Origin: Mnemiopsis leidyi | Taxonomy: Eukaryota | DNA length: 64,000 bases | NCBI GenBank assembly: GCA_048537945.1 | Contig: CM108484.1 | Coordinates: 9,059,785-9,123,784, forward strand | Direction of reading: 5' to 3' | Part shown: positions 11,645 to 54,530 of the stretch, piece by piece | Position numbering within the stretch: the stretch's first letter is position 1 | Layout of the letters: each line of letters opens with the position of its first letter | Notes under the pieces: model-generated | Database searches by the model: none | What the model was told of the DNA's origin: nothing | Seen by the model: the letters and a program-made list of their open reading frames with translations, nothing else | Program-made: the position numbers and the translations under genes

Positions 11645-14600
11645 CTGATAAAATCATTATTAAAATATTTCTGCAGGGAAGACTATTTTCTATCAATAAC
11701 TCGGGGTTTTATTTATTTGTCTAAAATTAAATAGAAGTCTTGAAGTGCGACTTACCCTTAACCTTAACATTAACAGCGCATACCTGGTTGCTATGTCCCG
11801 ATGTGGCAATAGCAGCAATATTTTCTGGTCCAAGATCCCCCACCATAGCTTTGAACTTGTCCGCCTCTATTTTCACCATTTTCCTCCGCTTTGTCACTTC
11901 AAGTTCGTTACAAGCTCGCAGGTAGTCCAACTCGCTTTTGCGGGCCGAAGAAATGCGTTCCAACTCCCCACGCTAAAAAATTGGGCGTAAATCAACAGAA
12001 ACTCGGCACTTTATCATTGATCCCAGGCCCGAATCGATAAATTAAAAAGTTCCATGGAGATTACTGCGAAGAACCTCAACAAAAACTCAAACTCAGTACT
12101 CACGGCGTTTATGTTCTCTGCTTCTGCAGCCAGTTTTGCCTGATCGACGGCTGCTTCCCCTTCAATTTTCATAGACTCAGCCCGAGACTGTGCCTCTGCT
12201 CTCGACTGCCCTGTGCTCTCGACGGCAGCTGAGCTGTCATAATACGGCTGATTAAATGACATAAATAAAGCAGCAATCTGCATTTCAATGTAAGAAATTC
12301 GTTGTGATTGAATTTAAATTTTAAGTTTTGAGCTTGTCTCTAAAATGTGACTGTAAATGGCCTGAAAGAACCGTAAGTTTGGGATTTTTATTTGAAATTG
12401 AACTTAGAAGAACACTGCGAAAACTCACACGGCTTGTAACTCTAAAAGTTCTTTTCTGGCCCTCTCCGCTTCTGCTTCATCGTTGAGTATCTGTCTCTCA
12501 AGTTTTCCTCGAGCCTCTTGGTCCAACCGCTCAGCTTCGTGTCTGAATCAAGAAAATTTCATAAATTCTTCAATTAAAATGCCTCAGCACAGTAAAATCC
12601 TAGAAAAAATGTGCAACCTTAGTTAGAGGTTAAAGGAAAAAAGATTTACCTAGCGGTTGCCTCCTGAGAGTTGGTAGTGATCTCAATAGCCAGCTGTACC
12701 GATTTCTGGAGGGAGTCTCTAGTTCTCTGATCGACTGGCTCGACAGACTGTATGTCTATATTAGATATTCTAAGTCGATTAGCTGGGAAGTATAGTGAGT
12801 CTTTGTCGCCCAGGATCGCTTGGTTTATTATTCTCACTGAGTGCTGAAAGTAATACTAGTAAGTTACCTCCAATCTTTTGTTCACAAATGACGTCATCAT
12901 TCTTACCCCTCCCCCTTTTTGCTTGTTCATCATTCGTCATCATGGCTAAACTCCTCCATGATGAACTTATCCCAGTCAGAACCCCCCCCCCTCCCTGCTT
13001 GAGGCTAAATAGCAAAATCTTTTATCATTTTGATCTTGTTCAAATGAGACAATTTTGCCATATAATTAGACTTCTACTTTCTCAAGTTAAAGTATGTACA
13101 GCATGAGCATTTCAATAACCTTGTGAAAGTCATCAAAAGGCACTGCTGCCACGGCTCCTCTTATTCTTGAAGCAATTGATTTGCAAGCGTCCCCGACAAA
13201 ATCTGGCACAGAAAACAGAGACTCGGAATCGCGCTTGTAAGTCGGCGAATCTTTCTTTGGCGTATCAAACTGCCTGCAGTTGTTAGGGAAATAGAAGATG
13301 ATTCATGAAACACTGGAGAAAATCGGGCTAATTATAGGTATCTCTCATAAGAGGGTTATCGCTAATAAATTGGCGCTAGGACTGGGAGTGAAACTTGACA
13401 GTTCGAGTAATGATTTGGTGTTTCCAGCAAACCATAGGTAGGTTCCTATTTAAATCAAATTCAAAATTGCTCATTTTTGCTTCGAGTCTTTCACTTACCA
13501 ATTGTAACAAAGCTGTAAAGAAAGCCTGGCATGGTCAGAAGTTTCCACCGTAAAAACATCCGTCATAAAATCAGGTCCAAGGGAGAGATCCAGAGTTCTG
13601 ATGACATTGGGTCGTTTAGGCTGGCCTCCAGAGAGACTAAGTTGGGTAAAGTGCTCGTCTGGGCCTAGCATGACCAAGTCTGGTCCGAATATTACCCTGA
13701 AATTGTTGGCTTGAGCTTCTGAAACACCTCAGTTATATTTGCAGACCAGAGTGTGGCTGCAGCTTTGCGGCAGCAGGCCTGACAACGTCAGGCAAGATTA
13801 GAATTGCTACGAAGAGTGAAGACATGAAGATGACCTCTCTCCTAGCTCTGGGTCATCCGTTTCTCATGTCTTCTTTGGTGTTCCATCCCCGTCCACTGTC
13901 GTTAACCCTTTAATCAGCTCTGAGCTCTTCTCTGACCTCCGTCATGCAATGCAAATTTAATATTTATCCCAAGGGTGGAACTGGAATAAATTAATTGCGC
14001 GCGCGTTGCGTAACGTACGTAACGTAAAAACATTAGTCGCGCGACAAAAACCACTAAAAAGACAAAAGGATTAGCGTGTTCCACAAAACACTCTAACAGT
14101 GTGTTAGTCCAGTAGGCCTTTCGGCAAAGTGGTACCATTTGAAAAGACCTAAATTGGCCATTTCAAGAAAAAACATAAAATTTTCAACACTAAATTGGAG
14201 GTGTTCCGCCCGTACGATTTTCTTCAAACTTTCAGAGCATGTTCCTTTTGACCAACACTACAAGATAGCGTCGGGAAAAGAGGGGGTTTATGAGTAAGTT
14301 TTCGAAATACAACTTCAAACACAAGGAAATATCTGATAATAAAAAAGCCCAATTCAGAGGTGTTCCGACCGTGCGATTTTCTTTAAAATTTTACAGTATG
14401 TTCCTCTTGATCTAAACTATCAGAAAACGTAAAAAAATTTGAGGGTCTATGTGTTAGTTTTCGAGATACAACCTTAAACACAGGGAAAAATCTAGAAATA
14501 AGTAAGCTGACCATGGAACAAGCCGATTTTGGAGGTGTTCCGACCGTACGATTGTCTTTCAAATTTCACAGTATGTTCCTTTTGATCTAAACTATTAGAA

Positions 14601-17600
14601 AATGTAAAAAAATTGGGGGGTCTATGTGTTAGCTTTCGAGATACATCTCTAAACACAAGGAAATATCTCAAAATAAATAGGCTGAGAATGAAACAAACAA
14701 ATTATGAAGGTGTTCCAACAGTACGATATTCTTCAAAAATTTCACAGAATGTTCATTTTTTACTAATTTTAATAGTTTTACAATTTAAAGTAATGTTAAT
14801 TTTATACTTATCAGTCGCAAAACGTAAAGCGTGCCTCCAGCCAGAAAAGACACGTGGTTTTCAGATTTCTAGTAATTTTAGGCTGACAATTTTAATTTTT
14901 CGGCTATAGGTGTGATGATTTTACGAAATTATCAAATTCGGATTCCTCGTCAAATTTTACGTCAAAATGCTGGTTTACCTTTTCTCCAGGCTCTAAGTCG
15001 AAAATTTCCATTTTGGGGCCCTATAGGGGTAACTTAAGGGGTCACGTGATGTTTTTGGATTTAAAACTATCAAATTCGGATTCGTCGTCAAATTTTACGT
15101 CAAACTACCGGTCTAACTTTTTTCCTAGCTCAAAGTTGAAAATATCCATTCTGAGGCCTTATAAGGGGTCACTAAACGGTCCACGTGATCATTTTTCGGC
15201 TCCGAAACTATCAAATTCGGCTTCCGCTGGTCTAACTTTTCTTTAAGTTCAAAGTTGAAAATTTTCATTTTTAGGGCCTTAAACTCTTTAAAGGCCCTTA
15301 AAGCTTAAAAGGCCTTCAGATCAACTTTTCACATAGCCTAAGCCACAGAACCCGCTAAAATCTACAATAAAATCTACCTGAAATTTTCATGACTCTGTCT
15401 TTTTCGTTTGGACTTCAATTCGTACCCCAATTTGGAGACTTTTTGGGCCTTTAAAGGCCCTAAGAGGGGTCGGAGCGAATTTTAACATGGCAAAAGTCAC
15501 AGAACGTGATGAAATCTACCTTATCTGAAACTTTCAAGTCTCTATCTCTTACCGTTTGGGCTCCAATTCGTTTGGGGGAAGGAGGAAAGGGAGAGGGGGG
15601 TGGTCAAGGGTCGTATACCACAATTCACGTTGTCATATTAGGGGGGTGGCAACGTTTTTTTTAAAACCCGGGCTACAATTGGACGAGAAATCAATTAGGA
15701 ATAGCCTCGAGGTTCAAACATTTTAGGTTAAACCTCGACACGGAATCATTTTTCCTCAATTTTTTAAAATTTTATAGAATAAACGAAAAGTTTCTGTATT
15801 TCAAGAATAACTTGGAACACACTAAGAAAATCGTAAGGTCGGAACACTTCCAAAAAGGCCTGGTACCATGGTCAGCGTACATATTATGAAATATTTTCTT
15901 GTGTTTGAAGTTGTATCTCCGAAACTAACACATAGACCCCCAAATTTTTTCGACGTAATCTTGTAGTTTGAATAGTAAGGAACATACTGTGAAGGTTTAA
16001 AGAACAATCCTATAGTCGGAACACCTCGAAAAGGCCTGGTACCATGGCCGGCGTACATATTTTGAGATATTTCCTTGTGTTTGAAGTTGTATCTCCGAAA
16101 CTAACACATAGACCCCCAAATTTTTTTACTTTTTCTGATAGTTTAGATCAAAAGGAAGATACTGTGAAATTTTAAAGAAAATCGCACGGTCGGAACACCT
16201 CCAAAAATGCCTAGTACCATGGTCAGCGTACATATTATGAGATATTTCCTTGTGTTTGAAGTTGTATCTCCGAAACTAACACATAGACCCCCAAACTTTT
16301 TTACTTTTTCTGATAGTTTAGATCAAAAGGAAGATACTGTGAAATTTTAAAGAAAATCGCACGGTCGGAACACCTCCAAAAATGCCTAGTACCATGGTCA
16401 GCGTACATATTATGAGATATTTCCTTGTGTTTGAAGTTGTATCTCCGAAACTAACACATAGACCCCCAAATTTTTTTACTTTTTCTGATAGTTAAGATCA
16501 AAAGGAAGATACTGTGAAATCTTAAAGAAAATCGCACGGTCGGAACACCTCCAAAAATGCCTAGTACCATGGTCAGCGTACATATTATGTGATATTTCCT
16601 TGTGTTTGAAGTTGTATCTCCGAAACTAACACATAGACCCCCAAATTTTTTTACTTTTTCTGATAGTTTAGATCAAAAGGAAGATACTGTGAAATCTTAA
16701 AGAAAATCGCACGGTCGGAACACCTCCAAAAATGCCTAGTACCATGGTCAGCGTACATATTATGTGATATTTCCTTGTGTTTGAAGTTGTATCTCCGAAA
16801 CTAACACATAGACCCCCAAATTTTTTTACTTTTTCTGATAGTTTAGATCAAAAGGAAGATACTATGAAATTTTAAAGAAAATCGCACGGTCGGAACACCT
16901 CCAAAAAGACCCGGTACCAAAATTTCGGCAAATTGGTACCATGGTACCAGAAAGTCCAACTCCGTGGTTATAATAATATCGCGACAACTAACACATAGAC
17001 CTCAACTTTTTTCGACGTAATCTTGTAGTTTGAATAGTAAGGAACATACTGTGAAGGTTTAAAGAACAATCCTATAGTCGGAACACCTCGAAAAGGCCTG
17101 GTACCATGGCCGGCGTACATATTTTGAGATATTTCCTTGTGTTTGAAGTTGTATCTCCGAAACTAACACATAGACCCCCAAATTTTTTTACTTTTTCTGA
17201 TAGTTTAGATCAAAAGGAAGATACTGTGAAATTTTAAAGAAAATCGCACGGTCGGAACACCTCCAAAAATGCCTAGTACCATGGTCAGCGTACATATTAT
17301 GAGATATTTCCTTGTGTTTGAAGTTGTATCTCCGAAACTAACACATAGACCCCCAAACTTTTTTACTTTTTCTGATAGTTTAGATCAAAAGGAAGATACT
17401 GTGAAATTTTAAAGAAAATCGCACGGTCGGAACACCTCCAAAAATGCCTAGTACCATGGTCAGCGTACATATTATGAGATATTTCCTTGTGTTTGAAGTT
17501 GTATCTCCGAAACTAACACATAGACCCCCAAATTTTTTTACTTTTTCTGATAGTTAAGATCAAAAGGAAGATACTGTGAAATCTTAAAGAAAATCGCACG

Positions 17601-20600
17601 GTCGGAACACCTCCAAAAATGCCTAGTACCATGGTCAGCGTACATATTATGTGATATTTCCTTGTGTTTGAAGTTGTATCTCCGAAACTAACACATAGAC
17701 CCCCAAATTTTTTTACTTTTTCTGATAGTTTAGATCAAAAGGAAGATACTGTGAAATCTTAAAGAAAATCGCACGGTCGGAACACCTCCAAAAATGCCTA
17801 GTACCATGGTCAGCGTACATATTATGTGATATTTCCTTGTGTTTGAAGTTGTATCTCCGAAACTAACACATAGACCCCCAAATTATTTTACTTTTTCTGA
17901 TAGTTTAGATCAAAAGGAAGATACTGTGAAATTTTAAAGAAAATCGCACGGTCGGAACACCTCCAAAAAGACCCGGTACCAAAATTTCGGCAAATTGGTA
18001 CCATGGTACCAGAAAGTCCAACTCCGTGGTTATAATAATATCGCGACAACTAACACATAGACCTCAACTTTTTTCGACGTAATCTTGTAGTTTGAATAGT
18101 AAGGAACATACTGTGAAGGTTTAAAGAACAATCCTATGGTCGGAACACCTCGAAAAGGCCTGGTACCATGGCCGGCGTACATATTTTGAGATATTTCCTT
18201 GTGTTTGAAGTTGTATCTCCGAAACTAACACATAGACCCCCAAATTTTTTTACTTTTTCTGATAGTTTAGATCAAAAGGAAGATACTGTGAAATTTTAAA
18301 GAAAATCGCACGGTCGGAACACCTCCAAAAATGCCTAGTACCATGGTCAGCGTACATATTATGAGATATTTCCTTGTGTTTGAAGTTGTATCTCCGAAAC
18401 TAACACATAGACCCCCAATTTTTTTTACTTTTTCTGATAGTTTAGATCAAAAGGAAGATACTGTGAAATCTTAAAGAAAATCGCACGGTCGGAACACCTC
18501 CAAAAATGCCTAGTACCATGGTCAGCGTACATATTATGTGATATTTCCTTGTGTTTGAAGTTGTATCTCCGAAACTAACACATAGACCCCCAAATTTTTT
18601 TACTTTTTCTGATAGTTTAGATCAAAAGGAAGATACTATGAAATTTTAAAAGAAAATCGCACGGTCGGAACACCTCCAAAAAGACCCGGTACCAAAATTT
18701 CGGCAAATTGGTACCATGGTACCAGAAAGTCCAACTCTGTTAGTCAGAAGGCCTTTCGGCAAAGTTGTTCCAATGAATGCCCTTAAATTTGCCGTTGCAA
18801 TGGAAAACATAGAATTTTAAACTCAAAATTGGAAGTGTTCCGACCGTACGATTTTCTTGAAAATTTCACAGTATGTTCCTATTGACCTAAATTAAAAGAT
18901 AACGTGGAGAAAATAGGGGGTCTAAGAGTCAGTTTTCGAGATACAACTTCAAACACAAGGAAATATCTTACCATAGAACAAGCCCATTTTGGAGGTGTTC
19001 CGACCGTACGATTTTCTTTAAAATTTCACAGAATGTTCCTTTTGATCTAAACTATCAGAAAATGTAAAAAAATTTGGGGGTCTATGTGTTAGTTTTCGAG
19101 ATACAACCTCAAACACAAGGAAATATCTCGAAATATGTACTCTGACCATGGAACAAGGCCTTTTTGGAGGTGTTCCCACCGTGCGATTTTCTTTAAACTT
19201 TCACAGTATGTTTCTATTGATCTAAACTATCAGAAAATGTAAAAAAATTTGGGGGTCTATGTGTTAGTTTTCGAGATACAACCTCAAACACAAGGAAATA
19301 TCTCGAAATAAGTACGCTGACCATAAAACAAGCCGATTTTGGAGGTGTTCCGACCGTACGATTTTCTTTAAACTTTCACAGTATGTTTCTTTTGATCTAA
19401 ACTATCAGAAAACGCAAAAAAGTTGGGGGGTCTATGTGTTAGTTTTCGAGATACAACCTCAAACACAAGGAAATATCTCGAAATAAGTACGCTGACCATG
19501 GAACAAGCCTATTTTGGAGGTGTTCCGACCGTACGATTTTTTTAAAACTTTCACAGTATGTTTCTTTTGATCTAAACTATCAGAAAATGTAAAAAAATTT
19601 GGGGGTCTACGTGTTAGTTTTCGAGATACAACCTCAAACACAAGGAAATATCTCGAAATATGTACTCTGACCATGGAACAAGGCCTTTTTGGAGGTGTTC
19701 CCACCGTGCGATTTTCTTTAAACTTTCACAGTATGTTTCTATTGATCTAAACTATAAGAAAATGTAAAATAATTTGGGGGTCTATGTGTTAGTTTTCGAG
19801 ATAAAACCTCAAACACAAGGAAATATCTCGAAATAAGTACGCTGACCATAAAACAAGCCGATTTTGGAGGTGTTCCGACCGTACGATTTTCTTTAAACTT
19901 TCACAGTATGTTCTTTTTGATCTAAACTATCAGAAAACGCAAAAAAGTTGGGGGGTCTATCTGTTAGTTTTCGAGATACAACCTCAAACACAAGGAAATA
20001 TCTCGAAATAAGTACGCTGACCATGGAATAAGCCTATTTTGGAGGTGTTCCGACCGTACGATTTTCTTTAAACTTTAACAGTATGTTCCTTTTAATCTAA
20101 ACTATCAGAAAATGTAAAAAAATTTGGGGGTCTATGTGTTAGTTTTCGAAAAACAACTTCAAACACAAGGAAATATCTCTAAATAAGTACGCTGACCATG
20201 GATCAAGCCGATTTTGGAGGTGTTTCGACCGTATGATTTTCTTTAAACTTTCACAGTATGTTCCTTTTGATCTAAACTATCAGAAAATGTAAAAAAATTT
20301 GGGGGTCTATGAGTTAGTTTTCGAGATACAACTTCAAACACAAGGAAATATCTCGAATTAAGTACACTGACCATGGAACAAGCCGATTTCGGAGGTGTTC
20401 CGGCCGTACGATTTTCTTTAAAATTTTACAGTATGTTTCTTTTGATCTAAATTATCAGAAAACGTAACAAAAAGTGGGGGTCTATGTGTAAGTTTTCGAG
20501 ATACAACTTAAAACACAAGGATATATCTCTTAATAAGTATGCTGTCCATGGAACAAGCCCATTTTGGAGGTGAGAAAAGTGGGGGTCTATATTTACGCTT

Positions 20601-23600
20601 TCGAGATATTATTCATCTCATAAGATAATTGGCGATCTTTTTTATGTAAAACCGTGTTGAATACAAGGTGTCTTCGAATCACTTCACCTTCCTTTTTAAG
20701 GCAGGTTCAGTCAGTCCACTTTGGTGGGTTAGTATTAGACATCAAGAGAGAGTCTCCAGTCAACTCTCTGTCAGTCAACTTTGTCAACCCATCAGATCCC
20801 CTCATTTAACCTGCTCGAAGTCCAACCTGCAGACCCTGGGGCCTGACACAGCCCTGGGTAACGAACAGTTGACACATAAATTTTGGTCAATCACAATTCA
20901 TATGCACCCACTCACGTCACCACCTTTAACCGCAGCTATTTGTCTTCTAGATGCTCATATTATAAGTGTATGAATCATAACCCCCCGCCGCTAGTCGTCT
21001 TCTAGCCACTCATGAGTGTATGAATTACAAACCTCTAACACGGACAGTGGAACATTAGACAAAACCAGCCAAGGGGAACTGGTAAAAGCTATGTCAGAAA
21101 TGTGCCTTTAACTAAACGCCACATACCAAATACAACCATGGAAATGCCAAAAAATGCCAAAACTTAACAGTAACAGTTAAAACCACGTCCCGGACCAAGG
21201 CATCAAACACTCGGTCCCCAAAGAACAATATGCACGATTAAGCCACGAGGGTCACCTAGCAGGACCGTTAGCAAAAAGCAGTGGTAGTCCCTCGCAGAAA
21301 CCACCTCACCATTCCGGAAGGGCGTTTCGACGCTTGACTCCTAACGGGTTCACTATGGCAATGACAGAGGTCCTTCAGGACATCCTCGATCCACCGGGCC
21401 TTAACATTTTGTTATGTCCTTTGGAAGTACCAGCCTAGCGAACCCCCAGCCAGCTGGGCTTTTGGTACACTCCTGCAATCCAAAGGAACCCCTAGAAACG
21501 TTAGCCACAAGGCGGACGTAGCCTTCTTGTTAATTCAGGAAGGCAATGTGGGTGCCCACTGAGTAATTTAAAAAGAAAAAAGTCCACTTTCTCATTTTGG
21601 TCATTTTATGTACATGTTACTGCCCTCTGAGGTACGTGTTACTGTCCTTTCAAGTACGTGTTACCGTTCTTACAGTAACGTGTTACTGTCCTCTCAGGTG
21701 CGTGTTACTGTCCTCTCAGGTACGTGTTACTGCCCTCTCAGATACGTGTTGCTTTTCTTTCAATAACGTGTTACCGTCCTCCGAGTATGCGTTACCTTTC
21801 AGATACGTTTTAAATCGAAAATGAGGATAAATATAGATATCACCGCAGCCTTGCGGGCGGTATTGGTTAAAACCACAAGGAACATTCTGAGAAAGTGTAA
21901 AGGAAATTGTACAATCGGAACACCTCCAAAAAGGCCTTGTTCCATGGTCAGAGTACATGTATTTCGAGAAATTTCCTTGTGTTTGAGGTTGTATCTCGAA
22001 AACTAACACATAGACCCCCCAATTTTTTTACATTTTCTGATAGTTTAGATCAATAGGAACATACTGTGAAAGTTTAAAGAAAATCGCACGGTCGGAACAC
22101 CTCCAAAAAGGCCTTGTTCCATGGTCAGAGTACATATTTCGAGATATTTCCTTGTGTTTGAGGTTGTATCTCGAAAACTAAAACATAGACCCCCAATTTT
22201 TTTACATTTTCTGATAGTTTAGATCAAAAGGAACATACTGTGAAAGTTTAAAGAAAATCGCACGGTGGGAACACCTCCAAATAGGCCTTGTTCCATGGTC
22301 AGAGTACATATTTCGAGATATTTCCTTGTGTTTGAGGTTGTATCTCGAAAACTAACACATAGACCCCCCAATTTTTTTACATTTTCTGATAGTTTAGATC
22401 AAAAGGAACATACTGTGAAAGTTTAAAGAAAATCGCACGGTGGGAACACCTTCAAAAAGGCCTTGTTCCAAAATTTTGGCTATTTGGAACAATGGAACAA
22501 GAAAGTCCAACTCCGTGGTTTTTTAGCTATATCTCGAAAACTAAAAAATAGGCCCCCATTTTTTTCGACGAATTCTTGTAGTTCTGATCGATAGGAACAT
22601 TCTGAGAAAGTGTAAAGGAAATTGTACAGTGGGAACAACTCCAAAAAGGCCTTGTTCCATGGTCAGAGTACATATTTCGAGATATTTCGTTGTGTTTGAG
22701 GTTGTATCTCGAAAACTAACACATAGACCCCCAAATTTTTTTACATTTTCTGATAGTTTAGATCAATAGGAACATACTGTGAAAGTTTAAAGAAAATCGC
22801 ACGGTCGGAACACCTCCAAAAAGGCCTTGTTCCATGGTCAGAGTACATATTTCGAGATATTTCCTTGTGTTTGAGGTTGTATCTCGAAAACTAACACATA
22901 GACCCCCCAATTTTTTTACATTTTCTGATAGTTTAGATCAAAAGGAACATACTGTGAAAGTTTAAAGAAAATCGCACGGTGGGAACACCTTCAAAAAGGC
23001 CTTGTTCCAAAATTTTGGCTATTTGGAACAATGGAACAAGAAAGTCCAACTCCGTGGTTTTTTAGCTATATCTCGAAAACTAAAAAATAGGCCCCCATTT
23101 TTTTCGACGAATTCTTGTAGTTCTGATCGATAGGAACATTCTGAGAAAGTGTAAAGGAAATTGTACAGTGGGAACAACTCCAAAAAGGCCTTGTTCCATG
23201 GTCAGATTACATATTTCGAGATATTTCGTTGTGTTTGAGGTTGTATCTCGAAAACTAACACATAGACCCCCAAATTTTTTTACATTTTCTGATAGTTTAG
23301 ATCAAAAGGAACATACTGTGAAAGTTTAAAGAAAATCGCACGGTGGGAACACCTCCAAATAGGCCTTGTTCCATGGTCAGAGTACATATTTCGAGATATT
23401 TCCTTGTGTTTGAGGTTGTATCTCGAAAACTAACACATAGACCCCCCAATTTTTTTACATTTTCTGATAGTTTAGATCAAAAGGAACATACTGTGAAAGT
23501 TTAAAGAAAATCGCACGGTGGGAACACCTTCAAAAAGGCCTTGTTCCAAAATTTTGGCTATTTGGAACAATGGAACAAGAAAGTCAAACTCCGTGGTTTT

Positions 23601-35600: not shown

Positions 35601-38600
35601 AATGGAACAAGAAAGTCCAACTCCGTGGTTTTTTAGCTATATCTCGAAAACTAAAAAATAGGCCCCCATTTTTTTCGACGAATTCTTGTAGTTTTGATCG
35701 ATAGGAACATTCTGAGAAAGTGTAAAGGAAATTGTACAGTGGGAACACCTCCAAAAAGGCCTTGTTCCATGGTCAGAGTACATATTTCGAGATATTTCCT
35801 TGTGTTTGAGGTTGTATCTCGAAAACTAACACATAGACCCCCAAATTTTTTTACATTTTCTGATAGTTTAGATCAAAAGAAACATACTGTGAAAGTTTAA
35901 AGAAAATCGCACGGTGGGAACACCTTCAAAAAGGCCCTGTTCTATGGTCAGAGTACATATTTCGAGATATTTCCTTGTGTTTGAGGTTGTATCTCGAAAA
36001 CTAACACATAGACCCCCCAATATTTTTACATTTTCTGATAGTTTAGATCAAAAGGAACATACTGTGAAAGTTTAAAGAAAATCGCACGGTGGGAACACCT
36101 TCAATAAGGCCTTGTTCCAAAATTTTGGCAATTTGGAACAATGGAACAAGAAAGTCCAACTCCGTGGTTTTTTAGCTATATCTCGAAAACTAAAAAATAG
36201 GCCCCCATTTTTTTCGACGAATTCTTGTAGTTTTGATCGATAGGAACATTCTGAGAAAGTGTAAAGGAAATTGTACAGTGGGAACACCTCCAAAAAGGCC
36301 TTGTTCCATGGTCAGAGTACATATTTCGAGATATTTCCTTGTGTTTGAGGTTGTATCTCGAAAACTAACACATAGACCCCCAAATTTTTTTACATTTTCT
36401 GATAATTTAGATCGAAAGGAACATACTGTGAAAGTTTAAAGAAAATCGCACGGTGGGAACACCTCCAAAAAGGCCTTGTTCCATGGTCAGAGTACATATT
36501 TCGAGATATTTCCTTGTGTTTGAGGTTGTATCTCGAAAACTAACACATAGACCCCCAAATGTTTTTACATTTTCTGATAGTTTAGATCAAAAGAAACATA
36601 CTGTGAAAGTTTAAAGAAAATCGCACGGTGGGAACACCTCCAAAAAGGCCTTGTTCCATGGTCAGAGTACATATTTCGAGATATTTCCTTGTGTTTGAGG
36701 TTGTATCTCGAAAACTAACACATAGACCCCCAAATTTTTTTACATTTTCTGATAGTTTAGATCAAAAGGAACATACTGTGAAAGTTTAAAGAAAATCGCA
36801 CGGTGGGAACACCTTCAAAAAGGCCCTGTTCTATGGTCAGAGTACATATTTCGAGATATTTCCTTGTGTTTGAGGTTGTATCTCGAAAACTAACACATAG
36901 ACCCCCAAATTTTTTTACATTTTCTGATAGTTTAGATCAAAAGGAACATACTGTGAAAGTTTAAAGAAAATCGCACGGTGGGAACACCTTCAAAAAGGCC
37001 TTGTTCCAAAATTTTGGCAATTTGGAACAATGGAACAAGAAAGTCCAACTCCGTGGTTTTTTAGCTATATCTCGAAAACTAAAAAATAGGCCCCCATTTT
37101 TTTCGACGAATTCTTGTAGTTTTGATCGATAGGAACATTCTGAGAAAGTGTAAAGGAAATTGTACAGTGGGAACACCTCCAAAAAGGCCTTGTTCCATGG
37201 TCAGAGTACATATTTCGAGATATTTCCTTGTGTTTGAGGTTGTATCTCGAAAACTAACACATAGACCCCCAAATTTTTTTACATTTTCTGATAGTTTAGA
37301 TCAAAAGAAACATACTGTGAAAGTTTAAAGAAAATCGCACGGTGGGAACACCTTCAAAAAGGCCCTGTTCTATGGTCAGAGTACATATTTCGAGATATTT
37401 CCTTGTGTTTGAGGTTGTATCTCGAAAACTAACACATAGACCCCCAAATTTTTTTACATTTTCTGATAGTTTAGATCAAAAGGAACATACTGTGAAAGTT
37501 TAAAGAAAATCGCACGGTGGGAACACCTTCAATAAGGCCTTGTTCCAAAATTTTGGCAATTTGGAACAATGGAACAAGAAAGTCCAACTCCGTGGTTTTT
37601 TAGCTATATCTCGAAAACTAAAAAATAGGCCCCCATTTTTTTCGACGAATTCTTGTAGTTTTGATCGATAGGAACATTCTGAGAAAGTGTAAAGGAAATT
37701 GTACAGTGGGAACACCTCCAAAAAGGCCTTGTTCCATGGTCAGAGTACATATTTCGAGATATTTCCTTGTGTTTGAGGTTGTATCTCGAAAACTAACACA
37801 TAGACCCCCAAATTTTTTTACATTTTCTGATAATTTAGATCGAAAGGAACATACTGTGAAAGTTTAAAGAAAATCGCACGGTGGGAACACCTCCAAAAAG
37901 GCCTTGTTCCATGGTCAGAGTACATATTTCGAGATATTTCCTTGTGTTTGAGGTTGTATCTCGAAAACTAACACATAGACCCCCAAATGTTTTTACATTT
38001 TCTGATAGTTTAGATCAAAAGAAACATACTGTGAAAGTTTAAAGAAAATCGCACGGTGGGAACACCTCCAAAAAGGCCTTGTTCCATGGTCAGAGTACAT
38101 ATTTCGAGATATTTCCTTGTGTTTGAGGTTGTATCTCGAAAACTAACACATAGACCCCCAAATTTTTTTACATTTTCTGATAGTTTAGATCAATAGAAAC
38201 ATACTGTGAAAGTTTAAAGAAAATCGCACGGTGGGAACACCTTCAAAAAGGCCCTGTTCTATGGTCAGAGTACATATTTCGAGATATTTCCTTGTGTTTG
38301 AGGTTGTATCTCGAAAACTAACACATAGACCCCCAAATTTTTTTACATTTTCTGATAGTTTAGATCAAATGGAACATACTGTGAAAGTTTAAAGAAAATC
38401 GCACGGTGGGAACATCTTCAAAAAGGCCTTGTTCCAAAATTTTGGCAATTTGGAACAATGGAACAAGAAAGTCCAACTCCGTGGTTTTTTAGCTATATCT
38501 CGAAAACTAAAAAATAGGCCCCCATTTTTTTCGACGAATTCTTGTAGTTTTGATCGATAGGAACATTCTGAGAAAGTGTAAAGGAAATTGTACAGTGGGA

Positions 38601-41600
38601 ACACCTCCAAAAAGGCCTTGTTCCATGGTCAGAGTACATATTTCGAGATATTTCCTTGTGTTTGAGGTTGTATCTCGAAAACTAACACATAGACCCCCAA
38701 ATTTTTTTACATTTTCTGATAGTTTAGATCAAAAGGAACATACTGTGAAAGTTTAAAGAAAATCGCACGGTGGGAACACCTTCAAAAAGGCCCTGTTCTA
38801 TGGTCAGAGTACATATTTCGAGATATTTCCTTGTGTTTGAGGTTGTATCTCGAAAACTAACAAATAGACCCCCAAATTTTTTTACATTTTCTGATAGTTT
38901 AGATCAAAAGGAACATACTGTGAAAGTTTAAAGAAAATCGCACGGTGGGAACACCTTCAAAAAGGCCTTGTTCCAAAATTTTGGCAATTTGGAACAATGG
39001 AACAAGAAAGTCCAACTCCGTGGTTTTTTAGCTATATCTCGAAAACTAAAAAATAGGCCCCCATTTTTTTCGACGAATTCTTGTAGTTTTGATCGATAGG
39101 AACATTCTGAGAAAGTGTAAAGGAAATTGTACAGTGGGAACACCTCCAAAAAGGCCTTGTTCCATGGTCAGAGTACATATTTCGAGATATTTCCTTGTGT
39201 TTGAGGTTGTATCTCGAAAACTAACACATAGACCCCCAAATTTTTTTACATTTTCTGATAGTTTAGATCAAAAGAAACATACTGTGAAAGTTTAAAGAAA
39301 ATCGCACGGTGGGAACACCTTCAAAAAGGCCCTGTTCTATGGTCAGAGTACATATTTCGAGATATTTCCTTGTGTTTGAGGTTGTATCTCGAAAACTAAC
39401 ACATAGACCCCCCAATATTTTTACATTTTCTGATAGTTTAGATCAAAAGGAACATACTGTGAAAGTTTAAAGAAAATCGCACGGTGGGAACACCTTCAAT
39501 AAGGCCTTGTTCCAAAATTTTGGCAATTTGGAACAATGGAACAAGAAAGTCCAACTCCGTGGTTTTTTAGCTATATCTCGAAAACTAAAAAATAGGCCCC
39601 CATTTTTTTCGACGAATTCTTGTAGTTTTGATCGATAGGAACATTCTGAGAAAGTGTAAAGGAAATTGTACAGTGGGAACACCTCCAAAAAGGCCTTGTT
39701 CCATGGTCAGAGTACATATTTCGAGATATTTCCTTGTGTTTGAGGTTGTATCTCGAAAACTAACACATAGACCCCCAAATTTTTTTACATTTTCTGATAG
39801 TTTAGATCAAAAGGAACATACTGTGAAAGTTTAAAGAAAATCGCACGGTGGGAACACCTTCAAAAAGGCCCTGTTCTATGGTCAGAGTACATATTTCGAG
39901 ATATTTCCTTGTGTTTGAGGTTGTATCTCGAAAACTAACAAATAGACCCCCAAATTTTTTTACATTTTCTGATAGTTTAGATCAAAAGGAACATACTGTG
40001 AAAGTTTAAAGAAAATCGCACGGTGGGAACACCTTCAAAAAGGCCTTGTTCCAAAATTTTGGCAATTTGGAACAATGGAACAAGAAAGTCCAACTCCGTG
40101 GTTTTTTAGCTATATCTCGAAAACTAAAAAATAGGCCCCCATTTTTTTCGACGAATTCTTGTAGTTTTGATCGATAGGAACATTCTGAGAAAGTGTAAAG
40201 GAAATTGTACAGTGGGAACACCTCCAAAAAGGCCTTGTTCCATGGTCAGAGTACATATTTCGAGATATTTCCTTGTGTTTGAGGTTGTATCTCGAAAACT
40301 AACACATAGACCCCAAAATTTTTTTACATTTTCTGATAGTTTAGATCAAAAGAAACATACTGTGAAAGTTTAAAGAAAATCGCACGGTGGGAACACCTTC
40401 AAAAAGGCCCTGTTCTATGGTCAGAGTACATATTTCGAGATATTTCCTTGTGTTTGAGGTTGTATCTCGAAAACTAACACATAGACCCCCCAATATTTTT
40501 ACATTTTCTGATAGTTTAGATCAAAAGGAACATACTGTGAAAGTTTAAAGAAAATCGCACGGTGGGAACACCTTCAATAAGGCCTTGTTCCAAAATTTTG
40601 GCAATTTGGAACAATGGAACAAGAAAGTCCAACTCCGTGGTTTTTTAGCTATATCTCGAAAACTAAAAAATAGGCCCCCATTTTTTTCGACGAATTCTTG
40701 TAGTTTTGATCGATAGGAACATTCTGAGAAAGTGTAAAGGAAATTGTACAGTGGGAACACCTCCAAAAAGGCCTTGTTCCATGGTCAGAGTACATATTTC
40801 GAGATATTTCCTTGTGTTTGAGGTTGTATCTCGAAAACTAACACATAGACCCCCAAATGTTTTTACATTTTCTGATAGTTTAGATCAAAAGAAACATACT
40901 GTGAAAGTTTAAAGAAAATCGCACGGTGGGAACACCTCCAAAAAGGCCTTGTTCCATGGTCAGAGTACATATTTCGAGATATTTCCTTGTGTTTGAGGTT
41001 GTATCTCGAAAACTAACACATAGACCCCCAAATTTTTTTACATTTTCTGATAGTTTAGATCAAAACAAACATACTGTGAAAGTTTAAAGAAAATCGCACG
41101 GTGGGAACACCTTCAAAAAGGCCCTGTTCTATGGTCAGAGTACATATTTCGAGATATTTCCTTGTGTTTGAGGTTGTATCTCGAAAACTAACACATAGAC
41201 CCCCCAATATTTTTACATTTTCTGATAGTTTAGATCAAAAGGAACATACTGTGAAAGTTTAAAGAAAATCGCACGGTGGGAACACCTTCAATAAGGCCTT
41301 GTTCCAAAATTTTGGCAATTTGGAACAATGGAACAAGAAAGTCCAACTCCGTGGTTTTTTAGCTATATCTCGAAAACTAAAAAATAGGCCCCCATTTTTT
41401 TCGACGAATTCTTGTAGTTTTGATCGATAGGAACATTCTGAGAAAGTGTAAAGGGAATTGTACAGTGGGAACACCTCCAAAAAGGCCTTGTTCCATGGTC
41501 AGAGTACATATTTCGAGATATTTCCTTGTGTTTGAGGTTGTATCTCGAAAACTAACACATAGACCCCCAAATTTTTTTACATTTTCTGATAATTTAGATC

Positions 41601-44600
41601 GAAAGGAACATACTGTGAAAGTTTAAAGAAAATCGCACGGTGGGAACACCTCCAAAAAGGCCTTGTTCCATGGTCAGAGTACATATTTCGAGATATTTCC
41701 TTGTGTTTGAGGTTGTATCTCGAAAACTAACACATAGACCCCCAAATGTTTTTACATTTTCTGATAGTTTAGATCAAAAGAAACATACTGTGAAAGTTTA
41801 AAGAAAATCGCACGGTGGGAACACCTCCAAAAAGGCCTTGTTCCATGGTCAGAGTACATATTTCGAGATATTTCCTTGTGTTTGAGGTTGTATCTCGAAA
41901 ACTAACACATAGACCCCCAAATTTTTTTACATTTTCTGATAGTTTAGATCAAAAGGAACATACTGTGAAAGTTTAAAGAAAATCGCACGGTGGGAACACC
42001 TTCAAAAAGGCCCTGTTCTATGGTCAGAGTACATATTTCGAGATATTTCCTTGTGTTTGAGGTTGTATCTCGAAAACTAACACATAGACCCCCAAATTTT
42101 TTTACATTTTCTGATAGTTTAGATCAAAAGGAACATACTGTGAAAGTTTAAAGAAAATCGCACGGTGGGAACACCTTCAAAAAGGCCTTGTTCCAAAATT
42201 TTGGCAATTTGGAACAATGGAACAAGAAAGTCCAACTCCGTGGTTTTTTAGCTATATCTCGAAAACTAAAAAATAGGCCCCCATTTTTTTCGACGAATTC
42301 TTGTAGTTTTGATCGATAGGAACATTCTGAGAAAGTGTAAAGGAAGTTGTACAGTGGGAACACCTCCAAAAAGGCCTTGTTCCATGGTCAGAGTACATAT
42401 TTCGAGATATTTCCTTGTGTTTGAGGTTGTATCTCGAAAACTAACACATAGACCCCCAAATTTTTTTACATTTTCTGATAGTTTAGATCAAAAGAAACAT
42501 ACTGTGAAAGTTTAAAGAAAATCGCACGGTGGGAACACCTTCAAAAAGGCCCTGTTCTATGGTCAGAGTACATATTTCGAGATATTTCCTTGTGTTTGAG
42601 GTTGTATCTCGAAAACTAACACATAGACCCCCAAATTTTTTTACATTTTCTGATAGTTTAGATCAAAAGGAACATACTGTGAAAGTTTAAAGAAAATCGC
42701 ACGGTGGGAACACCTTCAATAAGGCCTTGTTCCAAAATTTTGGCAATTTGGAACAATGGAACAAGAAAGTCCAACTCCGTGGTTTTTTAGCTATATCTCG
42801 AAAACTAAAAAATAGGCCCCCATTTTTTTCGACGAATTCTTGTAGTTTTGATCGATAGGAACATTCTGAGAAAGTGTAAAGGAAATTGTACAGTGGGAAC
42901 ACCTCCAAAAAGGCCTTGTTCCATGGTCAGAGTACATATTTCGAGATATTTCCTTGTGTTTGAGGTTGTATCTCGAAAACTAACACATAGACCCCCAAAT
43001 TTTTTTACATTTTCTGATAATTTAGATCGAAAGGAACATACTGTGAAAGTTTAAAGAAAATCGCACGGTGGGAACACCTCCAAAAAGGCCTTGTTCCATG
43101 GTCAGAGTACATATTTCGAGATATTTCCTTGTGTTTGAGGTTGTATCTCGAAAACTAACACATAGACCCCCAAATGTTTTTACATTTTCTGATAGTTTAG
43201 ATCAAAAGAAACATACTGTGAAAGTTTAAAGAAAATCGCACGGTGGGAACACCTCCAAAAAGGCCTTGTTCCATGGTCAGAGTACATATTTCGAGATATT
43301 TCCTTGTGTTTGAGGTTGTATCTCGAAAACTAACACATAGACCCCCAAATTTTTTTACATTTTCTGATAGTTTAGATCAATAGAAACATACTGTGAAAGT
43401 TTAAAGAAAATCGCACGGTGGGAACACCTTCAAAAAGGCCCTGTTCTATGGTCAGAGTACATATTTCGAGATATTTCCTTGTGTTTGAGGTTGTATCTCG
43501 AAAACTAACACATAGACCCCCAAATTTTTTTACATTTTCTGATAGTTTAGATCAAATGGAACATACTGTGAAAGTTTAAAGAAAATCGCACGGTGGGAAC
43601 ATCTTCAAAAAGGCCTTGTTCCAAAATTTTGGCAATTTGGAACAATGGAACAAGAAAGTCCAACTCCGTGGTTTTTTAGCTATATCTCGAAAACTAAAAA
43701 ATAGGCCCCCATTTTTTTCGACGAATTCTTGTAGTTTTGATCGATAGGAACATTCTGAGAAAGTGTAAAGGAAATTGTACAGTGGGAACACCTCCAAAAA
43801 GGCCTTGTTCCATGGTCAGAGTACATATTTCGAGATATTTCCTTGTGTTTGAGGTTGTATCTCGAAAACTAACACATAGACCCCCAAATTTTTTTACATT
43901 TTCTGATAATTTAGATCGAAAGGAACATACTGTGAAAGTTTAAAGAAAATCGCACGGTGGGAACACCTCCAAAAAGGCCTTGTTCCATGGTCAGAGTACA
44001 TATTTCGAGATATTTCCTTGTGTTTGAGGTTGTATCTCGAAAACTAACACATAGACCCCCAAATTTTTTTACATTTTCTGATAGTTTAGATCAAAAGAAA
44101 CATACTGTGAAAGTTTAAAGAAAATCGCACGGTGGGAACACCTCCAAAAAGGCCTTGTTCCATGGTCAGAGTACATATTTCGAGATATTTCCTTGTGTTT
44201 GAGGTTGTATCTCGAAAACTAACACATAGACCCCCAAATTTTTTTACATTTTCTGATAGTTTAGATCAAAAGAAACATACTGTGAAAGTTTAAAGAAAAT
44301 CGCACGGTGGGAACACCTTCAAAAAGGCCCTGTTCTATGGTCAGAGTACATATTTCGAGATATTTCCTTGTGTTTGAGGTTGTATCTCGAAAACTAACAC
44401 ATAGACCCCCAAATTTTTTTACATTTTCTGATAGTTTAGATCAAATGGAACATACTGTGAAAGTTTAAAGAAAATCGCACGGTGGGAACATCTTCAAAAA
44501 GGCCTTGTTCCAAAATTTTGGCAATTTGGAACAATGGAACAAGAAAGTCCAACTCCGTGGTTTTTTAGCTATATCTCGAAAACTAAAAAATAGGCCCCCA

Positions 44601-47600
44601 TTTTTTTCGACGAATTCTTGTAGTTTTGATCGATAGGAACATTCTGAGAAAGTGTAAAGGAAATTGTACAGTGGGAACACCTCCAAAAAGGCCTTGTTCC
44701 ATGGTCAGAGTACATATTTCGAGATATTTCCTTGTGTTTGAGGTTGTATCTCGAAAACTAACACATAGACCCCCAAATTTTTTTACATTTTCTGATAATT
44801 TAGATCGAAAGGAACATACTGTGAAAGTTTAAAGAAAATCGCACGGTGGGAACACCTCCAAAAAGGCCTTGTTCCATGGTCAGAGTACATATTTCGAGAT
44901 ATTTCCTTGTGTTTGAGGTTGTATCTCGAAAACTAACACATAGACCCCCAAATTTTTTTACATTTTCTGATAGTTTAGATCAAAAGAAACATACTGTGAA
45001 AGTTTAAAGAAAATCGCACGGTGGGAACACCTCCAAAAAGGCCTTGTTCCATGGTCAGAGTACATATTTCGAGATATTTCCTTGTGTTTGAGGTTGTATC
45101 TCGAAAACTAACACATAGACCCCCAAATTTTTTTACATTTTCTGATAGTTTAGATCAAAAGGAACATACTGTGAAAGTTTAAAGAAAATCGCACGGTGGG
45201 AACACCTTCAAAAAGGCCCTGTTCTATGGTCAGAGTACATATTTCGAGATATTTCCTTGTGTTTGAGGTTGTATCTCGAAAACTAACACATAGACCCCCA
45301 AATTTTTTTACATTTTCTGATAGTTTAGATCAAAAGGAACATACTGTGAAAGTTTAAAGAAAATCGCACGGTGGGAACACCTTCAAAAAGGCCTTGTTCC
45401 AAAATTTTGGCAATTTGGAACAATGGAACAAGAAAGTCCAACTCGTGTTAGTTTGAAACATTGAAAACACAGTGAACACTCGATTTGCCTGCATGTTTCA
45501 AGTTGGGAGTCTCTGTCACTTCCAATATAGGGACTACCTCCCTCTGACTTCTGAGGCGTCGAGAATGAAAACAGCACCACAGTTTGAACATTCGCACCGA
45601 TTTTCAACTATTGCCAGGGGTGAAGGAATATGCTCAAAACTGGGGGAGGCACTTTCATCTGAAAATTTGCCTACAGTGCTATCTCGGCGGCACTTCGCAC
45701 CACCTCGCTCGCAAGTGCCTAATGTTAGCGTTTATTTGATCATCGTCATTAGAAACCCCCCTAATTGTGCGTTTTGATGGGTTCCGGGGGAAAAAAGTAA
45801 CTGAACCTCCAATGTTTATGAAGTATGAAATTGTAGTTTGAAATCTGTCGTACAGAATTGTTTGGGGTTCAAAATTTCCGACTAAGTGTGATTTTGAGAC
45901 TGTGGAGGACCATGATATCACATTGTACCTTCTGAAGAGCCCTGTAAACCCTGACCTGGGCCTCATAGTCCATATGTCTTTGTTGGTCGAACCTGTTGCT
46001 ATTGCTTAACTCCACCCCCTCTTCATATTGGTCTATATATGTCTTTGTTGGTCGAACCTGTTGCTATTGCTTAACTTCACCCCCTCTTCATTTTGGTCTA
46101 TATAGTCAGGCTGGCGAAATCATGATAGGGTATATGTCGGTTGTTGGGCTTAAGTTAGATCGAATGTCTTTGCCATTATTTAGCAATTCTGCTATCTTTC
46201 GCTATCTTTCCTCTTGATTAAAAAGTGCTAAATTTTAAAAACCCCTTGATGAATGTTTTTGCGTTCAACTAATGACGATTATGAACTGAATTCTAAATCT
46301 CGGACCCGGAATACAGGTACCAACACCACATTAAAATCTCAGATGCAGTCTCACATGAGAAAATTCATTATATATAACATAAACTAAACCAATTTCATCA
46401 CCCGCAGAGAAACTGGATTAATACAATAGTGTACTCCTTGAATGTAGGATGTACATAATATCATTGCTTCCTCTACATACCCTGTTGTCATTGACTACAC
46501 TACACAAACATGCACGCACCATGATTGCTGTTAACATTTAAATTTAAAAAGTCGCCATTGATAAAGGCGGGGAAAAGAGGCAACGTACAAATAATGGAAA
46601 AATATTGCATTCACTAAAACAAGATCTCAGCAAACCAACCTGGAAACTTTTGTCTTGTAATCGAAGACCTGAACTGCTGAGTTGTGGGGGACCTGATAAG
46701 TAATGACTTTTTTCTTGTCTCTCGGTTTTGTTGCTACTTCTTTATTCTGTTTGTCACCCCTGAGCTTCTCCCGTCCAACTAGAGGATTCAGAGCCTCGGC
46801 TAATAGTTTTTCTATTATCTCAGGAAGCTCTTTAGAATACAACTCTTCATCTTGATTATAGATGTAAGTTTCTCCAATCACTGCTCGAACCTGTAAATTT
46901 TTAGAATTATTTGTTATCCCATTTTGCAGAAAATCAACATTACATCATACAATTAGTATAGTGGTACAGTATACAAAATTGTTTACAAAATAGTAAACAA
47001 TAGTATACAATAGTATACAATGGCATACAATAGTATTCAAAACAGTATATAAAAAATTATACTAAATAGCTCAAAGAAAAGGAGACAAGAAAAAATCCAT
47101 GCTCCTGAAGCTTATTTTTTAAACAAACCTTTCCCGTCTTGACATTTCTAACGTAAACACCCTCGTTGGCGTCCAAGGGTATTGCCTTTCTCTTGGAAAC
47201 AACTTCCATTTCAACAGTTGGACAAAATTCTCGGGGTCCTTTCAGCATCCATTTGTCCCCTGGATTTCTTTGTACCCCCTGAAGAAAAATCTTATTGATT
47301 TGTACCTCTAGAAAACATGGATTTATTGTATCGTGTTGGTGGTTTTTCATTAGGTTTTTAAAAACGTCAAAAGTTAAAGAAAATATAGACAAAACTCCCA
47401 AACAAACTTCGTAACTTTGAAAATCAATAAAAAAAGAACTGCCGCTTTTCTCACGTTATCTGTAAAAGGGAGAATGGCCCTCAGAACGACAGCTTCATCC
47501 TCCAACAGAATACAAACGTCCTGAACCTCTCCATTCTCCAGTGTCTCGCCCGGGTGGAGGAAAAACTCTTTTTCGCCCTGTCATTATAATTAATGGACAT

Positions 47601-52493: not shown

Positions 52494-52834
52494 TCTTTCT
52501 GCAAAGATTATGTATTATCTGTGTTAAAGCTTAACAAAATTAGCAATATGAGAACATACCTGAAAATAATTAGGGTGGTGGCAACCACCCCCAAATTTTA
52601 ATGGGAGTTCAAAAAAAGGTGCCATCCCCCCTAGTATGACAACAGGAAGTGTGGTATACGACCCCCCCTGACTTCCTGACCAATCCCGACCCCCCACTGA
52701 CGCTTTTTTGCAAACAAATTGGAGCCCAAAAGGTAAGAGATAGAGACTCGAAAATTTCAGATAAGGTAGATTTCATTACGTTCTACGGCTTTGGCTATGT
52801 TACAATTAGCTCCAACCCCTCTAAGGAACCTTTA

Positions 52835-53470
52835 AGGCCTTAAAAGCCGATATATCCGAATTTGATAGTTTTGAATCCATAAAACGAGCAAGTGACCCCT
52901 TAAGTGAACCCTTATAGGGCCCAAAAATAGAAATTTTCAACTTTAAGCAAGGAGAAAAAATAGACCAGTATTTTGACATAAAATTTGATAAGGAATCCGA
53001 ATTTGATAGTTTTGAATGTGAAAAATGGTCACGTGACCCGTTAAGTGAGCCCTTATAAGGCCTCAAAATGGAAATTTTTAACTATGGCCTAGGGGAAAAG
53101 TTAAACCAGTAAAATTTGATGAGGAATCTAAATGTGAAGGTTTTGAATCCGAAAAATCATCATGTGCCCCCATAAGTGACCCCCTATAGCCAAAAATTGA
53201 AAATTTTTAACTTTGTTGTAGATGAAAAGTTAGACTAGTATTTTCACATAAAATTCGACAAGGAATCCAAATTAAAAGTTTGAAGTCAAAAAATATCACA
53301 TGACCTGCTGAGTATTTTTTGTATTTGTTTTTTGTTACAAAAATTTTGAATTTTTGGCTATAGGGGGTCACTTATGGGGCCACATGATGATTTTTCGGAA
53401 TCAAAACCTTCACATTTAGATTCCTCGTCAAATTTTACTGGTTTAACTTTTCCCCTAGGCCATAGTTGAA
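52835..53470 (+). repeat. Satellite family B, block 3, upstream of the MVP start; the last ~130 bp (53335-53470) is inverted relative to 53085-53200
   Basis: Same monomer family. 53340-53465 is the exact reverse complement of 53085-53200, giving a local inverted duplication. The flanking segment 52560-52830 is the reverse complement of 15290-15560. Confidence 0.8.
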
Positions 53471-53896: not shown

Positions 53897-54181
53897 GTAC
53901 CCAGGCTTTTACAGTTATACTGAAGGGGCTCCTGGAAGATTCTAGATCTTTTAACGGAGACCCTTCTCATTTAACCCTCAATCACTGTTTCCCGGTCATT
54001 TAGCTAAGTCGACTGAATAAGATTGCATAGGCAAATGCCCTTAGCGCAATCCTCTAGGATTGGCAGATCTGGGAATCAAACCCCCGATCTTCTGCATGGA
54101 AATTATTGTTTTCCTTGAAATTATTGTTTTCCTTGAAAGTCGGGTAGATACCACTACACCACCAACTCACAAAGTGACCCC
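53897..54181 (-). mobile_element. tRNA-derived SINE copy with an internal 18-bp tandem duplication
   Basis: Same family. Contains GGAAATTATTGTTTTCCTTGAAATTATTGTTTTCCTTGAAAG inserted in the tRNA-like head. Confidence 0.8.
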
Positions 54182-54189
54182 TTTTCTTG

Positions 54190-54415: not shown

Positions 54416-54419
54416 TTCT

Positions 54420-54530
54420 TAAGCTAGAAGAAAAGTTAGACCAGCATTTAGACGTAAAATTACAAGAAATCTGAAAACCACGTGTATTTTCTGGCTGGAG
54501 GCACGCTTTGCTCTTGAGACTGATATGGAT
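54420..54530 (+). repeat. Satellite family B terminal fragment (one unit plus the conserved CTGAAAACCACGTGTATTTTCTGGCTGG terminus)
   Basis: Matches 48300-48425 and the reverse complement of 14820-14880. Confidence 0.7.

Follow-up and report, generated by a model that had tools for sequence, protein, structure and literature searches.

A satellite complex within the major vault protein gene of Mnemiopsis leidyi, read as two adjacent candidate foldback-type elements

Satellite blocks and their pairing into two units

The 64,000-nucleotide stretch of Mnemiopsis leidyi contig CM108484.1 analysed here (positions 9,059,785 to 9,123,784; referred to as the window) harbors a satellite complex of 31 kb within the gene for the major vault protein (MVP), which lies on the minus strand. 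The composition of the window is eukaryote-like, with a G+C content of about 36% and without long open reading frames (ORFs), and scans of the window revealed neither tRNA genes nor Rfam matches. Four blocks of a 175-bp satellite make up the complex, two of them in reverse and two in forward orientation:

14199-14760: reverse block 1
~15721-18737: forward array 1
18833 to ~20615: reverse block 2
21877-45444: forward array 2

When each reverse block is joined to its right-hand forward array, two colinear units emerge, E1 (14110-18737) and E2 (18745-45444), both of which follow the same plan of left end, reverse monomers, middle, forward monomers, and right end. Along the DNA, the order is repeat, E1, repeat, E2, repeat (14101-45452). 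Inverted ends, repeat-filled arms, a non-coding middle, and a flanking repeat together point to a non-autonomous element of the foldback type. Thus, we read 14101-45452 as two adjacent non-autonomous foldback-type DNA elements whose inverted arms are arrays of the 175-bp satellite, and we give this reading a probability of about 0.55. The two units and their repeats are composed as follows:

14101..14108, plus strand: direct repeat 1, GTGTTAGT, adjoining E1 on the left
14110..14198, plus strand: E1 left terminal domain (lead), homologous to 18745-18832; its first 33-45 nt (CAGTAGGCCTTTCGGCAAAGTGGTACCATTTG...) are the left imperfect inverted repeat
14199..14760, minus strand: E1 left arm, a 159-bp diverged monomer followed by about 2.3 reverse 175-bp monomers
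14761..15720, no strand assigned: E1 middle, mostly (14803-15660) a copy of an unrelated repeat
15721..18665, plus strand: E1 right arm, one degenerate monomer followed by a 1062-bp higher-order repeat (HOR), with variant monomers at 16891 and 17953
18666..18737, plus strand: E1 right terminal domain, consisting of a truncated variant monomer; hairpin at 18688-18715, end ...GAAAGTCCAACTC
18738..18744, plus strand: direct repeat 2, TGTTAGT, the sole DNA separating E1 from E2
18745..18832, plus strand: E2 left terminal domain, opening with the left inverted repeat CAGAAGGCCTTTCGGCAAAGTTGTTCCAATG...
18833..20615, minus strand: E2 left arm, a 160-bp diverged monomer, nine reverse monomers, and a degenerate remnant, without variant monomers
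20616..21876, no strand assigned: E2 middle, non-coding, present only once in the window, and harboring a 22-bp minisatellite (21610-21781)
21877..45372, plus strand: E2 right arm, about 134 forward monomers
45373..45444, plus strand: E2 right terminal domain, consisting of a truncated variant monomer; hairpin at 45394-45423, end ...GAAAGTCCAACTC
45445..45452, plus strand: direct repeat 3, GTGTTAGT, adjoining E2 on the right

On their left sides, E1 and E2 are colinear, with standard monomers following a diverged one of roughly 160 bp, which is itself preceded by the lead of about 90 bp, and the right arms of both harbor an HOR built on a variant monomer. The arms are unequal in length, with 0.65 versus 3.0 kb in E1 and 1.9 versus 23.6 kb in E2 (left versus right), and the switches from reverse to forward orientation pass through non-satellite spacers of 1.0 kb (E1) and 1.3 kb (E2). 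These two middles are unrelated to each other, and the non-array parts of the units differ by about 16-22%. Analysis of the coding capacity of the E2 middle revealed no Pfam family for a 101-aa ORF at E <= 0.01, and stops were present in all six frames. Its minisatellite (21610-21781) consists of 7.8 copies of the 22-bp unit GTACGTGTTACTGTCCTCTCAG, which was also found in contig L004 (190-360), and is followed, just before the E2 right arm, by a G+C-rich hairpin, CCGCAGCCTTGCGGGCGG. The repeat copy in the E1 middle belongs to an unrelated interspersed family with internal units of about 141 bp, identified at 14803-15660, 52611-53305, 47973-48424, and 54455-54531, and is a later insertion between the E1 arms. 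A 232-bp unit that is tandemly duplicated with 98% identity (53957-54424) adjoins a fragment of the same family.

The variant monomer, 188/189 bp in length, defines the HORs of both forward arrays. Compared with the standard monomer, 46 bp are swapped for 60 bp, and this variant-specific segment carries a hairpin with a stem of 8-10 bp. In forward array 1, the HOR unit comprises six monomers (1062 bp); in forward array 2, units of 539 bp prevail (25 units, copies 98.6% alike), the others being 363/364, 714, or 889 bp long. Toward the outer (right) end of forward array 2, the 539-bp units give way to those of 889 bp, and the spacing of the variant monomers between 22500 and 45444 displays a longer superimposed periodicity of about 3.1-3.2 kb. 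All 42 variant monomers lie outside the reverse blocks, which do not show an HOR either. The inner ends of the arrays are fuzzy, with start phases ranging from about 64 to 135, and the assumption of a common start phase for all arrays, which was considered, was dropped as not robust. Within the window, the signature CGACG..CTTGTAG occurs only in variant monomers and in the outermost left-arm monomers. A related satellite with 86% identity was found in contig L005 (470-784; sample KOPF15-1, SAMEA7422955), where all monomers bear this signature, and such monomers may represent the older monomer type.

Array ends, inverted termini, and direct repeats

Both forward arrays end at the identical base, the 14-mer AGAAAGTCCAACTC being located at 18724-18737 and at 45431-45444. 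A preliminary description of this DNA had already claimed a common, non-random end and placed it at 18727 and 45437; sharing the same final base, the array ends are indeed not random, and both of these positions fall inside the motif, though the true last bases are 18737 and 45444. With at most one mismatch, AGAAAGTCCAACTC occurs 42 times in the window, always on the plus strand and once per variant monomer, while 0.03 occurrences would be expected by chance. Unlike the two array-terminal copies, which are followed, in agreement with the earlier account, by TGTTAGT (18738-18744) and GTGTTAGT (45445-45452), the internal copies continue with CGTGG. A further motif of this kind, an array end followed by GTTAGT at 20713-20733, was taken as a chance occurrence, and comparison of its surroundings with the HOR gave a z of about -0.5.

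The reverse blocks, too, share the opening ascribed to them before, TGTTAGTC(C)AG(T/A)AGGCCTTTCGGCAAAGT..., starting from 14102 and 18738, and the 17-mer AGGCCTTTCGGCAAAGT was found only at 14114 and 18749. Recognisable reverse monomers start only about 95 bp past this type of opening motif. Alignment of the two leads showed that they are homologous over about 200 bp including the first monomer (about 80% identity, z = 82), and the similarity of the lead to the insert of the variant monomer could also be reproduced, with 19 of 20 positions shared between TTTCGGCAAAGTGGTACCAT and TTTCGGCAAATTGGTACCAT. Aligned up to the end, lead and variant monomer gave a z of about 3, and aligned through the motif ACTAACAC a z of -1.6. 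The possibility that the lead is a degenerate reverse monomer was rejected on account of weak alignments (z <= 2.9) and this lack of colinearity through ACTAACAC.

The two ends of a unit are related to each other as terminal inverted repeats with about 70-76% identity over 33-45 nt; the 30-mers of the element are CAGWAGGCCTTTCGGCAAAGTKGTWCCA at the left and TGGWACMATGGWACMAGAAAGTCCAACTC at the right end. In terminus-anchored alignments of 45 nt, the left end of E1 aligned with the reverse complement of 18693-18737 at a score of 12 (z 5.8), and that of E2 with the reverse complement of 45400-45444 at a score of 9 (z 4.8), scores that none of 5000 shuffles reached in either case (shuffle mean about -5). 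The best ungapped inverted match of 13 nt among 625 offset pairs, (C/G)AGT(A/T)GG(C/A)CTTTC with 10/13 positions, was obtained in the register that pairs 14110 with 18737. Moreover, TTGTTCCAA matches at 9/9 positions in the E2 ends, which indicates their inverted orientation.

Sequence changes within a unit go together at its two ends. E1 harbors GGTACC at both ends, while its left-arm monomers have TGTTCC; E2 carries TGTTCC at the left and the complementary GGAACA at the right end, so that its ends are related as inverted copies. Two compensatory pair changes (UA to GC and UA to AU) preserve the hairpin across the two subfamilies; they are compatible with constraint and reflect one lineage split only.

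The same junctions had been explained in the preliminary description by inversion in place. In that model, the reverse blocks are inverted segments of one array, and the breaks are set by the palindrome of the variant monomer via hairpin-capped breaks, fold-back priming, or template switching. It draws on the exact coincidence of the array ends, on the hairpin with its 8-10-bp stem located 21-22 nt upstream of the end, and on a quasi-palindrome at 18693-18790, in which the right end of E1, 7 nt, and the left end of E2 follow each other (z 4.6 for the E2 left end against the reverse complement of the E1 right end). We nevertheless consider it improbable. The breakpoints do not lie within the palindrome as claimed, since the hairpins occupy 18688-18715 and 45394-45423 and the arrays end 21-22 nt further 3', albeit still within the 60-bp variant-specific segment. 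A mirror gradient over 18737 was not detected, as the standard monomers of forward array 1 and reverse block 2 showed identities of 0.86-0.91 in every register without a diagonal. The reverse blocks are devoid of variant monomers and HORs and are therefore not flipped pieces of the neighboring forward arrays. The adjoining arms also belong to different subfamilies: the monomers of reverse block 2 are 0.91-0.97 identical to those of the non-adjacent forward array 2 and only 0.865-0.90 identical to those of the adjoining forward array 1. Finally, the far side of each switch is a non-satellite spacer, and the half-junctions at 14100 and 45444 meet unique DNA with the same 8-mer, which inversion does not predict. 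What stands of the earlier proposal, besides the non-random ends and the kinship of the lead with the variant-monomer insert, is that a composite unit was propagated; this unit is not confined to the junction plus reverse block but also holds the middle, the forward arm, and the right end.

At this single locus, the outer flanks each bear GTGTTAGT, TGTTAGT separates the units, and a search of both strands of the 64 kb revealed GTGTTAGT outside the arrays only at 14101 and 45445. We read this repeat of 7-8 bp as a putative target-site duplication shared by both copies, though it may equally be microhomology. Alignments of the DNA beyond 45452 and before 14101 showed no likeness to the lead or to monomers except for the 8-mer, so that an interpretation of these flanks as decayed lead or monomer sequence was rejected; the left and right outer flanks are also unrelated to each other. 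Together with the left flank, the first direct repeat forms a short palindrome, CTAACA-GTG-TGTTAG (14089-14108), which may be a palindromic target or due to chance (about 1e-3). The idea that the reconstructed empty site forms a hairpin did not hold, and a paralogous empty site was found neither in the window nor in the contigs examined.

The direct repeats would also be accounted for by an alternative without any transposase. A dyad-symmetric satellite block could have been excised as an extrachromosomal circle closed at the 8-mer, a dimeric copy of which then inserted at a genomic GTGTTAGT through microhomology, or the block could have been duplicated in place via the 8-bp repeat; the direct repeat would then be monomer-derived microhomology and not a target duplication. 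A succession of repeat, unit, repeat, unit, and repeat is the expected outcome if a dimeric circle integrates or if slippage occurs between short repeats, every monomer contains the reverse complement of the 8-mer, and satellites of Tribolium freemani display conserved inversion segments, even numbers of inverted subarrays, and possible spread by circular DNA (PMC12581902). Even so, we regard this explanation as unlikely. The lead is not colinear with the monomer through ACTAACAC, which means that the arm does not simply continue into the 8-mer, and the non-array parts of E1 and E2 are about 16-22% apart. This divergence and the unit-specific, co-varying inverted ends fit better to two subfamily members of a mobile family, towards which we lean, though gene conversion between arms could mimic such a pattern.

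Proposed origin and comparison with known systems

If E1 and E2 are indeed foldback elements that arose by transposition, the forward arrays would always stop at ...GAAAGTCCAACTC because that base is the right end of the element, and the reverse blocks would begin at the homologous point of its left end. The variant monomer would derive from the right terminal domain, with its hairpin and 21-22-nt tail, a copy of which came to lie internally and was included in the unit being amplified; this would be the reason why the variant monomer defines the HOR. The right arm of E2 would have grown to 23.6 kb later, presumably by unequal exchange, while the pair itself may have been generated either by tandem duplication through the repeat or by a second insertion into the same target. 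The hairpin or the reiterated ends might serve to bind a transposase.

Several observations weigh against this interpretation. The inverted repeats are imperfect (about 70-76%) with an indel of 7 nt, the left domain exceeds the right one by about 36 nt, and the internal copies of the end are confined to the right arms. Read on the opposite strand, GTGTTAGT corresponds to monomer positions 84-91 (ACTAACAC), a motif of every monomer; the chance of such an agreement is about 0.5%, and the transposon model gives no explanation for it. Besides, E1 and E2 share one repeat copy, which requires either duplication through 8 bp or strict target specificity. Beyond this one locus, neither a second copy with a different flanking repeat nor an empty site was found in the protein index, the JGI metagenomes, or the GTDB genomes. 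No transposase was found, and the termini assign no superfamily. As for the individual searches, junction-spanning ORFs gave no matches in the protein index, two scans of JGI metagenomes and one GTDB scan revealed no copies, and searches with monomer ORFs yielded two short ENA satellite contigs, L004 and L005, both without an element end.

Contig L004 bears on the question whether the orientation switches were produced during assembly by chimeric or fold-back long reads. Satellites are prone to misassembly, and the analysis covers a single assembly; however, this independent short-read contig reproduces 21427-22171, over the boundary between the E2 middle and right arm, with 97% identity. The junctions are also not mirror images of each other and display specific, diverged terminal domains with about 80% identity between copies, so that an artefact is scarcely credible.

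Foldback transposons that carry and seed satellites are an already documented phenomenon. In Tetris, a foldback transposon of Drosophila virilis, the arms consist of repeats of about 220 bp, target duplications of 8-10 bp flank the element, and the non-coding middle is variable; a stretch of 37 bp is common to the terminal domain and the repeat, and the arm repeats became a satellite (PMC4079207, Dias et al. 2014). E1 and E2 resemble Tetris in having long inverted arms with an outer unique domain and repeats of satellite size in variable number (220 bp in Tetris, 175 bp here), and a variable non-coding middle, as well as in the stretch that the terminal domain shares with the repeat unit and in the expansion of arm repeats into satellite arrays. 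In contrast to Tetris, the terminal domains reach only about 70-95 bp, with no more than 70-76% identity between them, the end is repeated in one arm only, as the HOR-defining variant monomer, and two copies share one flanking repeat. Moreover, the host is not a Drosophila, sequence similarity to Tetris is absent, and the units are known from one locus.

The arm repeats of Rehavkus elements in Tribolium remained short in one species, whereas a second species has arrays of them that extend up to 80 kb (TCsat12; PMC12581902); the elements are characterized by a 9-bp target duplication and a minisatellite before the 3' inverted repeat (PMC6446971). Terminal inverted repeats combined with subterminal tandem repeats are shared with E1 and E2, as is a minisatellite, here the 22-bp one before the E2 right arm. 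Unlike the present units, Rehavkus has autonomous copies with a PHD-finger transposase and 9-bp duplications, while the repeat described here comprises 7-8 bp (8/10 when taken as 10 bp).

In T. freemani, the TfSat01 and TfSat03 arrays, which display macro-dyad symmetry, change orientation at a few conserved and propagated junction types, where a monomer breaks off abruptly and one in reverse orientation follows (PMC12581902), as do the arrays in our window. Their junctions, however, are free of foreign sequence and of additional divergence, and these arrays are pervasive and lie at centromeres (PMC12581902). Here, by contrast, the terminal domains are diverged, a direct repeat and unique genic DNA adjoin the outer ends, and non-satellite spacers separate the two orientations inside each unit.

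HINE elements (Cg_HINE/pearl of oysters and DINE-1) likewise carry satellite-like repeats between defined flanks and a palindrome near the 3' end (PMC7492417). A further explanation is that the arrays are internal repeats of rolling-circle elements (Helitron/Helentron, HINE-type), with the variant monomer as tail-to-head joint and ...CAACTC as the 3' end behind the hairpin. The subterminal hairpin with its short tail does look like a Helitron 3' end, the variant monomer has the appearance of such an end followed by different sequence (CGTGG...), and satellite-like central repeats are known from the oyster HINE elements (PMC7492417). We still judge this to be very improbable, and Helitron or HINE termini were rejected because direct repeats flank the units, the arms form inverted pairs, and the left flanks are not related. 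HINE and Helitron elements enter at TT or AT without duplicating their target (PMC7492417), whereas the units are flanked by a direct repeat of 7-8 bp, and the nucleotide after the end is T in one case and G in the other. HINE elements harbor one array in one orientation, TT insertion, 11-12-bp subterminal inverted repeats, and a left-flank microsatellite (PMC7492417); the units, in contrast, have two inverted arms each, and no relationship exists between the sequences upstream of forward array 1 and of forward array 2. A CTRR end, a subterminal inverted repeat in the left flank, and an internal repeat with a microsatellite were not established, and the motif at 20713 is within chance. The palindrome, too, precedes the terminal 21-22 nt instead of following an inverted repeat.

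A second, small foldback structure was identified in the window at 59148-60092. Tandem repeats of the 9-bp unit CAATGGNNN fill its arms (about 59154-59560 and 59610-60087), which show 91-92% complementarity, and a possible 7/8 direct repeat, ATATTAT(C/A), is located near the ends of the structure. Thus, repeat-armed structures of the foldback type occur elsewhere in this genome. Close by, an inverted repeat of 48 nt with 98% identity and a loop of 3 nt (60200-60298) could be a hairpin element or one similar to miniature inverted-repeat transposable elements.

Genomic setting and wider meaning

The satellite complex is located between two exons of the MVP gene, the exon sequence of which was identified as follows:

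47057-47401, minus strand: MVP exon, residues about 349-398 of solved MVP chains
12014-12283, minus strand: MVP exon, residues about 713-758 of solved MVP chains
46617-52475, minus strand: region also containing MVP exons

About 315 MVP residues must fit into the scant non-satellite DNA left between the two exons, and the gene may therefore be disrupted. Three contigs from related species (L001-L003) share the upstream MVP exons with 72-86% nucleotide identity. In these contigs, no satellite was found within 10 kb of the shared MVP exon, and past 46617 (toward lower coordinates) no collinear match but only short scattered matches were obtained, so that they offer no orthologous empty site. Just downstream of the same MVP exon, all three contigs harbor an intronless ORF of about 1100 aa in antisense orientation, encoding an LDLa plus 7TM receptor (L001, 11720-15054; L002, 11742-15071; L003, 11388-14720). 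In the counterpart of this region in the window, no ORF of at least 130 aa was detected, and no protein-level search for receptor remnants was made.

Going further than the foldback reading itself, one could picture an active, sequence-specific foldback transposon, the functional right end of which (hairpin plus tail) is repeated in each HOR and the preferred target of which, GTGTTAGT, complements a motif in every monomer. We hold this to be quite doubtful. If true, any HOR boundary could be used as an alternative end and the satellite would draw insertions in opposite orientation, a self-reinforcing system that would seed satellite loci even inside genes and flip arrays at one fixed base.

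Orientation switches in satellites should be checked for arm pairing, inverted ends, and short direct repeats before inversion is invoked. If confirmed genome-wide, the reading of E1 and E2 as foldback-type elements would provide a base-resolved case of a foldback element becoming a 23-kb satellite array within a gene, outside the insects that host Tetris and Rehavkus, with the end of the element fossilised in each higher-order repeat.

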